From Escherichia phage vB_Eco_T-01: a stretch of 64,000 nucleotides of DNA. Below, in pieces: positions 31,165 to 31,431 of the stretch. The position numbers were made by a program, and so were the translations under genes. The notes under the pieces were generated by a model. That model saw only the letters and a list, made by a program, of their open reading frames with translations, was not told the DNA's origin and made no database searches. The DNA lies in sequence record PQ438391.1. One strand, written 5' to 3'. Position 1 is the stretch's first letter; each line of letters starts with the position of its first letter.

Positions 31165-31370
31165 ATCAACCCAACTAAAGCAAATGCTAAATCTACAAAT
31201 GTATCAAGAGTAACTACTGGAATATTAATACCATGTGCAATTGCAACAGGTGATAAAATAAAGTTCCAGAGTAAAATTCCTACCATAGCAGAAATAGTAA
31301 AAGCTATACGTTTTTATTACCTTTTATGGCATTAACAAGTGCCATTAATTTTTGTACCATATGTCCTCCT

Positions 31371-31397
31371 TATTGCTTTATATATTTATTGTATAAT
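31371..31397 (+). promoter_or_regulatory. candidate MotA-dependent middle promoter upstream of gene 56
   Basis: MotA box TTGCTTTA then about 11 bp then TATAAT. Confidence 0.5.
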
Positions 31398-31431
31398 TAA
31401 TCTACTAACCCATGAATTGAAAGGAAAAATA

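Follow-up and report, generated by a model that had tools for sequence, protein, structure and literature searches.

The reference record of bacteriophage T4 (NC_000866) places the dam gene (16846..17625) between genes 56 and 61, in the order 61, a 309-bp gap, dam and 56, just as the first-pass annotation of the DNA described here had it. Within Tequatrovirus the 61/56 site is found in three states. It is empty in T6 and in the phage studied here, it holds a 186-aa open reading frame (phrog_8706) followed by dam in the T2 type (T2, Shinka; 147 records), and it holds an 88-bp remnant of this reading frame followed by dam in the T4 type (T4; about 34 records). In the segments examined, the cassette region occupies 1571-2910 of Shinka (MZ502379.1) and the T4 remnant lies at approximately 4627-4715. 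The 186-aa product shows a weak, sub-threshold match to the DpnII endonuclease family (PF04556, E = 0.0045). Should this match prove genuine, the cassette of T2-type phages would be a GATC restriction-modification system, with the dam gene of T4 as its orphan methylase. Among the T-even phages, T6 is the classical case in which no DNA adenine methylase is known to be induced. A literature search revealed no paper stating that T6 is without Dam; the T6 sequence itself is dam-less at this site.

We analysed a stretch of 64 kb (the window) out of the genome of approximately 167 kb of Escherichia phage vB_Eco_T-01 (PQ438391.1), and all positions refer to this stretch unless another record is named. 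The order of its open reading frames runs from nrdD to 43, through 61, 56, rIIA/B and 52, and on to 38-34. The window is a segment of a Tequatrovirus (T4-like) genome. Over positions 30100-32000 the best GenBank match was phage MLF4 with 98.7% identity. Over 24 kb of the window the best match in the phage collection was 95-97% identical and none exceeded about 97%. The interval between genes 61 and 56 extends from 31165 to 31431 and thus comprises 267 bp, one less than the 268 bp given in the first-pass annotation. Its left border is gene 61 (30136..31164, plus strand), whose 342-aa product is nearly identical to T4 gp61. This product gave a weak match to DNAG_N, and its counterparts in MLF4 and T6 are annotated as DNA primase. 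The last four nucleotides of gene 61 (31161-31164) overlap the stop codon of a gene on the opposite strand, dam.1, which is described below. The right border is gene 56 (31432..31950, plus strand, ATG at 31432), encoding a dCTPase/dUTPase of 172 aa.

Some other parts of the window also differed from T4 or MLF4. The region downstream of gene 56 (31950-32314, plus strand) has no segF homing endonuclease between 56 and soc, unlike T4, and holds two small reading frames, of 64 and 57 aa, where T6 has soc.2 and T6ORF029. The full-length gene for AdfA/61.2 (28984-29610, plus strand; E = 1.7e-136) is directly followed by a 108-aa reading frame (29641-29967, plus strand) which matches AdfA, the anti-DarT factor A, in its C-terminal half (PF23813, E = 1.7e-7); this extra partial copy is absent from MLF4. 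Also missing in MLF4 is a 207-aa reading frame between the alpha-glucosyltransferase gene and gene 47 (12438-13061, plus strand). It has a weak, sub-threshold GIY-YIG match (PF01541, E = 3e-4) and is probably a homing endonuclease of the Seg type. The large subunit of topoisomerase II (43507-45324, plus strand) is encoded by a single reading frame of 606 aa, as it is in MLF4, whereas T4 divides it between genes 39 and 60 and has the translational bypass.

The interval is best regarded, and with good confidence, as the usual 61-56 junction that T-even phages of the T6 type have, without dam, housing the promoter of gene 56 and the small gene dam.1. Such an arrangement is already known. In evolutionary terms the junction would either never have acquired, or have lost, a dam cassette of approximately 0.9-1.5 kb that is sited exactly here in T4 and T2.

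It might be thought that so compact an interval without dam, to which the first-pass annotation had drawn attention, is an oddity in a T4-like phage. This view was not borne out, since the T6-type layout proved to be the majority state in Tequatrovirus. In the GenBank phage collection we counted about 293 records with a contiguous dam-less junction, 182 with a T4-type Dam at an identity of at least 90%, 181 with the upstream sequence found invariably before dam in the cassette, and 484 with a dam.1 reading frame adjoining gene 61. These counts indicate that the dam-less and the dam-containing states are essentially mutually exclusive. The alignment of the window with T4 extends up to the ATG of dam.1 and resumes about 20 nt before the ATG of gene 56. 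The dam-less arrangement is also present in the Mosigvirus Shf125875, a relative of RB69, and in the Gaprivervirus VR20. Taken together with T6 and with the record counts, these two genera indicate that Dam has been inserted in a minority of the Tequatroviruses. For annotation this means that the dam-less 61/56 junction is normal for most T-even relatives and that T4 is the exception.

The minus strand of the interval carries a single gene, dam.1 (RB69ORF029w, phrog_2024), of 66 codons (31161..31360). It is frameshifted and measures 200 nt instead of the normal 201, with one base missing in the alignment with MLF4 and T4. When the 66-aa T4 reading frame was used as a tblastn query, residues 1-16 matched 31360..31313 with 100% identity and residues 17-66 matched 31313..31164 with 96% identity in a different frame. 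The phrog_2024 profile matched residues 2-66 of the T4 orthologue (E = 4.6e-31), to which the window copy is 96-100% identical in its two pieces. The first-pass annotation had described a reading frame of 18 codons followed by a hydrophobic one of 40 codons. Both exist, the second with 41 codons, yet they are the halves of dam.1 and not two genes. The N-terminal fragment (MVQKLMALVNAIKGNKNV; 31304..31360, minus strand) consists of 18 codons and a premature TAG (31306..31304) and corresponds to dam.1 residues 1-16. The C-terminal fragment (31161..31286, minus strand) starts at the internal Met26 and comprises the transmembrane and C-terminal helices; it has no Shine-Dalgarno sequence of its own, there being no GGAG-like motif upstream of 31286. 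Because T4 possesses dam.1 between 61 and dam, the minus-strand signals of the interval are unconnected with the absence of dam. The naming of the gene is uneven. It is "hypothetical" in MLF4, "dam.1" in T4T (HM137666) and T6, and RB69ORF029w in RB69. In the T4 reference record NC_000866 it is present as a 66-aa reading frame on the opposite strand and left unannotated. Conservation of the gene extends over no fewer than three genera.

The frameshift lies in a run of five T residues at 31311..31315 (five A residues on the coding strand of dam.1). MLF4 and most relatives have six T residues at this place and T4 has TTTCTT (AAGAAA on the coding strand). Thus one nucleotide has been deleted from the A6 run in codons Lys16-Lys17, and the reading frame ends after 18 codons. 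With the gene truncated in this way, dam.1 is probably inactive in the window phage. The exact 71-nt allele with five T residues was found in two of the 484 records of the GenBank phage set, namely Shinka and a48, and scans of IMG/VR for the exact patterns of the five-T and six-T alleles gave no match to either.

As the site is a homopolymer and the extra base is present in 482 of the 484 records, the deletion could also be a sequencing or assembly error, in which case the real phage would have an intact dam.1. We regard this as possible, and as the less likely of the two explanations. Over about 57 kb aligned with MLF4, no isolated indel other than the slip in dam.1 shifted the frame of a conserved coding sequence, despite 355 homopolymer runs of five and 55 runs of six in the window. 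Moreover, exactly this allele is present in two independently deposited genomes which differ in their neighbouring gene content, a48 being dam-less and Shinka having the 186-aa reading frame and dam. That the frameshift stands alone among so many runs makes us lean towards a real mutation, which we consider reasonably probable.

Phage contingency loci have been described as genes with a homopolymer of at least six residues that undergo reversible frameshifts (bioRxiv 10.1101/2025.10.21.683753). The A6 tract of dam.1 (codons 16-17) might be a slippage-prone ON/OFF contingency locus of this type in T6-type phages, the window carrying the OFF allele, an idea that we judge rather improbable. In assembled sequences the tract was A6 in the relatives and A5 in three genomes including the window. 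In a variant of the same improbable idea, the OFF allele would yield a little full-length protein through -1 ribosomal slippage on AAA-AAC, by which the frame would be restored.

Promoter-like signals were found on both strands of the interval. T4 middle promoters are defined by (a/t)(a/t)(a/t)TGCTT(t/c)A near -30 and TAnnnT 11-13 nt downstream. By pattern match, a MotA-dependent middle promoter of gene 56 is located at 31373..31397 on the plus strand. It consists of the MotA box TTGCTTTA (31373-31380), a spacer of 11 nt and the -10 sequence TATAAT (31392-31397), and the extended box TTATTGCTTTA (31370-31380) fits the middle-promoter consensus. A promoter facing gene 56 had thus been noted correctly in the first-pass annotation; only its start, given as 31371, was 2 nt off. 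The window has 15 occurrences of the pattern TGCTTNA-N11-13-TANNNT where 4.6 would be expected, and none of 100 shuffles gave as many. Almost all MotA-type pattern matches in the window were on the plus (early/middle) strand. In its position relative to gene 56 the promoter equals the mot-box and -10 sequence of T4 P(M)16.53 (X01416), whose transcript is the oriA primer according to a note in NC_000866. The 49-bp core around the window promoter gave no BLAST alignment with T4. Judged by motif and position, the promoter is the predicted functional counterpart of P(M)16.53 and is presumably active. The window also encodes MotA (53322..53954; PF09158, E = 7e-66; PF09114, E = 5e-61). AsiA is assigned to a 90-aa reading frame at 55777..56049, by its likeness to T4 AsiA and because the collinear coding sequence in MLF4 is annotated as "anti-sigma factor".

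On the minus strand, a strong Shine-Dalgarno sequence opening a reading frame had been reported before and was readily confirmed. The sequence AAGGAGGA (31371..31364) is found by direct reading 3 nt before the ATG of dam.1 (31360..31358), and its GGAGG ends 4 nt upstream of this codon. A strong Shine-Dalgarno sequence is present at the equivalent place in T4, Mosigvirus and Gaprivervirus. Further upstream, 22 nt from the ATG, ATAAATA (31383..31389, minus strand) is a candidate late promoter. T4 late promoters, which depend on gp55/gp33, are marked by TATAAATA, with transcription starting about 6-7 nt downstream of it, and AATAAATA at 31390-31383 matches it in seven of eight positions, the first base being different. 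Such sequences are scarce in the window: ATAAATA was found 13 times versus 41 expected, a three-fold depletion, and TATAAATA 3 times versus 10.7 expected. ATAAATA also occurs 16-22 nt before the dam.1 ATG in T4, Shf125875 and VR20, where the flanking sequences are non-homologous; in T4 it lies within the inserted cassette and not in homologous sequence. This recurrence in non-homologous flanks argues for a variant late promoter of dam.1. The "divergent signals" of the first-pass annotation can therefore be read as two putative promoters placed back to back, of which one, a middle promoter, would serve gene 56 and the other, probably a late one, dam.1. On the plus strand, MotA and AsiA would direct transcription of gene 56 from the middle promoter. 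On the minus strand, dam.1 would be expressed from its own strong Shine-Dalgarno sequence and a likely gp55-type late promoter, converging on gene 61.

Within the 5' coding region of dam.1 there is an inverted repeat read on the plus strand (31326..31345), with a stem of 8 bp including three G-C pairs and followed by TAATTTTTGT. It is possibly a weak intrinsic terminator of gene 61 transcripts. It is identical in T4 and MLF4; a hairpin with T-run occurred once in the window against 0.4 expected in shuffles, which is not significant alone. This terminator-like hairpin, and the lack of an annotation in the T4 reference record, might suggest that dam.1 is non-coding and owes its conservation to DNA or RNA signals, for instance termination of gene 61 or antisense regulation. 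We consider this very unlikely. Synonymous sites are saturated between genera (pS 0.60-0.75), yet length and frame are kept in all three genera together with 20 invariant residues, among them W32-N33-F34, P38, H43-G44, P48 and D57. The strong Shine-Dalgarno sequence is kept in all four lineages, whereas the hairpin, compared by eye, is apparently not conserved in Mosigvirus. With pN values of 0.32-0.36 and a dN/dS of 0.11-0.35, dam.1 is under purifying selection. The idea that each of the two fragments in the window is a mini-gene with a function of its own, such as encoding a leader peptide in one case and a hydrophobic toxin in the other, could appeal to the strong Shine-Dalgarno sequence of the first and the hydrophobicity of the second, but was rejected as hardly credible, given that the two joined end to end reproduce dam.1 with the slip as the one difference, that dam.1 is a single intact reading frame in more than 99% of the relatives across three genera, and that the 41-codon frame has no Shine-Dalgarno sequence.

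A tblastn search with the Mosigvirus homologue of dam.1 gave matches in 692 phage records. DNA primase was annotated at the match in 38 of the 40 matches listed; the two exceptions were an unannotated record and VR20, in which the primase gene is about 200 nt away. An exhaustive profile search detected no relatives of dam.1 outside the T4-like phages and only three remote representatives. Long repetitive hits of this search (P0035-P0037) were discarded as spurious. No match was found in Pfam, NCBIfam or PADLOC, and among viral structures Foldseek retrieved nothing beyond the dam.1 family itself and one remote T4-like protein of 63 aa. Literature searches for "dam.1" with T4 yielded no paper and no transcript or protein data, and a search for ribosome-profiling and small-protein studies yielded nothing relevant.

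The AlphaFold2 model of dam.1 (pLDDT 80.6) contains helices at residues 2-12, 16-42 (27 residues) and 52-65 and a loop at 43-51, with Asp53 and Asp57 on one face of the C-terminal helix. That dam.1 is a small membrane protein is well supported. In the predicted arrangement, a basic amphipathic N-terminal helix would be followed by a long transmembrane helix with the conserved W-N-F, inserted in the inner membrane, and then by the conserved H-G...P loop and a short acidic-faced helix. The N-terminal KGNKKR cluster suggests an N-in topology. Overall, dam.1 is probably a late, non-essential protein of the inner membrane. It is a conjecture that it acts at the envelope by association of its transmembrane helix and that it may have a part in the timing of lysis or in exclusion.

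Class II holins and pinholins such as S21 (about 70 aa) resemble dam.1 in size, hydrophobicity and probable late expression, and one UniProt entry for a dam.1 homologue has been named "Holin" automatically. They differ from it in their charged C-terminal tail, an adjacent endolysin gene and two full transmembrane segments instead of one. The holin reading was rejected: in the AlphaFold2 model there is one long transmembrane helix and a helix of 14 residues, the C-terminus is hydrophobic, no endolysin gene is nearby, and a comparison with holin families gave neither a sequence nor a profile match. The window phage has its own T holin (56050..56706).

The first-pass annotation had stated that no Dam methyltransferase is encoded in the 64 kb, and tblastn, phmmer and a motif IV scan agreed with this. 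The best tblastn match of T4 Dam to the window had an E-value of 3.1. Neither T4 Dam nor the D12 methyltransferase of T4_ev240, both of which themselves match PF02086, gave a significant match by tblastn or phmmer to the six-frame reading frames of the window. A six-frame scan for motif IV ([DNS]PP[YFWH]) in reading frames of at least 80 aa had SPPF as its sole match, and thus no credible methyltransferase; SPPF is a chance match in a 99-aa reading frame (28331..28630) at the position of T4 61.4. At the 61-56 location itself there is no Dam, the 267 bp being taken up by dam.1 and the promoters.

An adenine methyltransferase might nevertheless be encoded outside the window, for example between nrdA and nrdB, a locus which falls in the remaining part of the genome. 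T4_ev240 and six other records have a PF02086 protein there which is 33% identical to T4 Dam; in T4_ev240 (LR597657.1, 2992-3783 of the examined segment) it is a D12 methyltransferase of 263 aa (PF02086, E = 1e-23). The probability that the phage studied here has any such enzyme is slight. The nrdA-nrdB enzyme is found in just 7 of about 560 Tequatrovirus records, and all 181-182 copies of T4-type dam are accompanied by the upstream sequence of the cassette. In addition, no methyltransferase is annotated in the examined parts of MLF4 (about 1-148,100 and 147,000-167,379), nor did these parts contain a D12 homologue or a plausible methyltransferase with motif IV. Of the two options raised at first, that dam lies elsewhere in the genome or that the phage lacks it, the second is by far the likelier. 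We infer that the absence extends beyond the window and that this phage is very probably devoid of any DNA adenine methyltransferase.

Towards systems that read m6A made by the phage, vB_Eco_T-01 should behave like T6 and not like T4 or T2. Conceivably, the polymorphism of dam at this site is maintained, since a methyltransferase made by the phage protects against some restriction systems but can set off other kinds of defence, for example retrons by which phage methyltransferases are sensed (10.1101/2023.08.16.553469). On its own the locus matters little; the biological question that it raises is what dam.1 does.

Several described phages can be placed beside the window. RB69ORF029w and VR20 gp029, orthologues of dam.1 with a similar length of 65 aa, are likewise convergent with gene 61 in a dam-less 61/56 interval and have a strong Shine-Dalgarno sequence with ATAAATA upstream. 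They differ in that the reading frame is intact and shares 51-55% amino acid identity with dam.1, and VR20 has a gap of approximately 200 nt between the dam.1 orthologue and gene 61. T4 (NC_000866 16785-17935; X01416) shares the flanking genes 61 and 56, a dam.1 with 96% amino acid identity and a MotA middle promoter immediately before gene 56, but has approximately 930 bp (dam and the last 88 bp of the upstream reading frame) in place of 49 bp of the window (31363-31411). The cassette of T2 and Shinka is inserted at the same site as that of T4, between dam.1 and 56; Shinka has the dam.1 frameshift allele in common with the window, whereas the two extra genes of about 1.47 kb in T2 and Shinka, the 186-aa reading frame and dam, are both missing from it. 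T6 (MH550421.1) has the same gene order, 56<-[Dam.1->]<-61, an interval of the 267-bp class without dam that is 96.9% identical in nucleotide sequence over its whole length, and the same MotA box and -10 sequence. In dam.1 itself the two phages part. In T6, a laboratory phage, the ATG start codon is replaced by ATT (GTACAATATG on the other strand; examined segment about 1747-1950) and dam.1 is annotated from Met6 with 61 aa, so that the 5' end of the gene has been damaged a second time and independently, whereas the window keeps the ATG and has the single-nucleotide deletion at codons 16-17.
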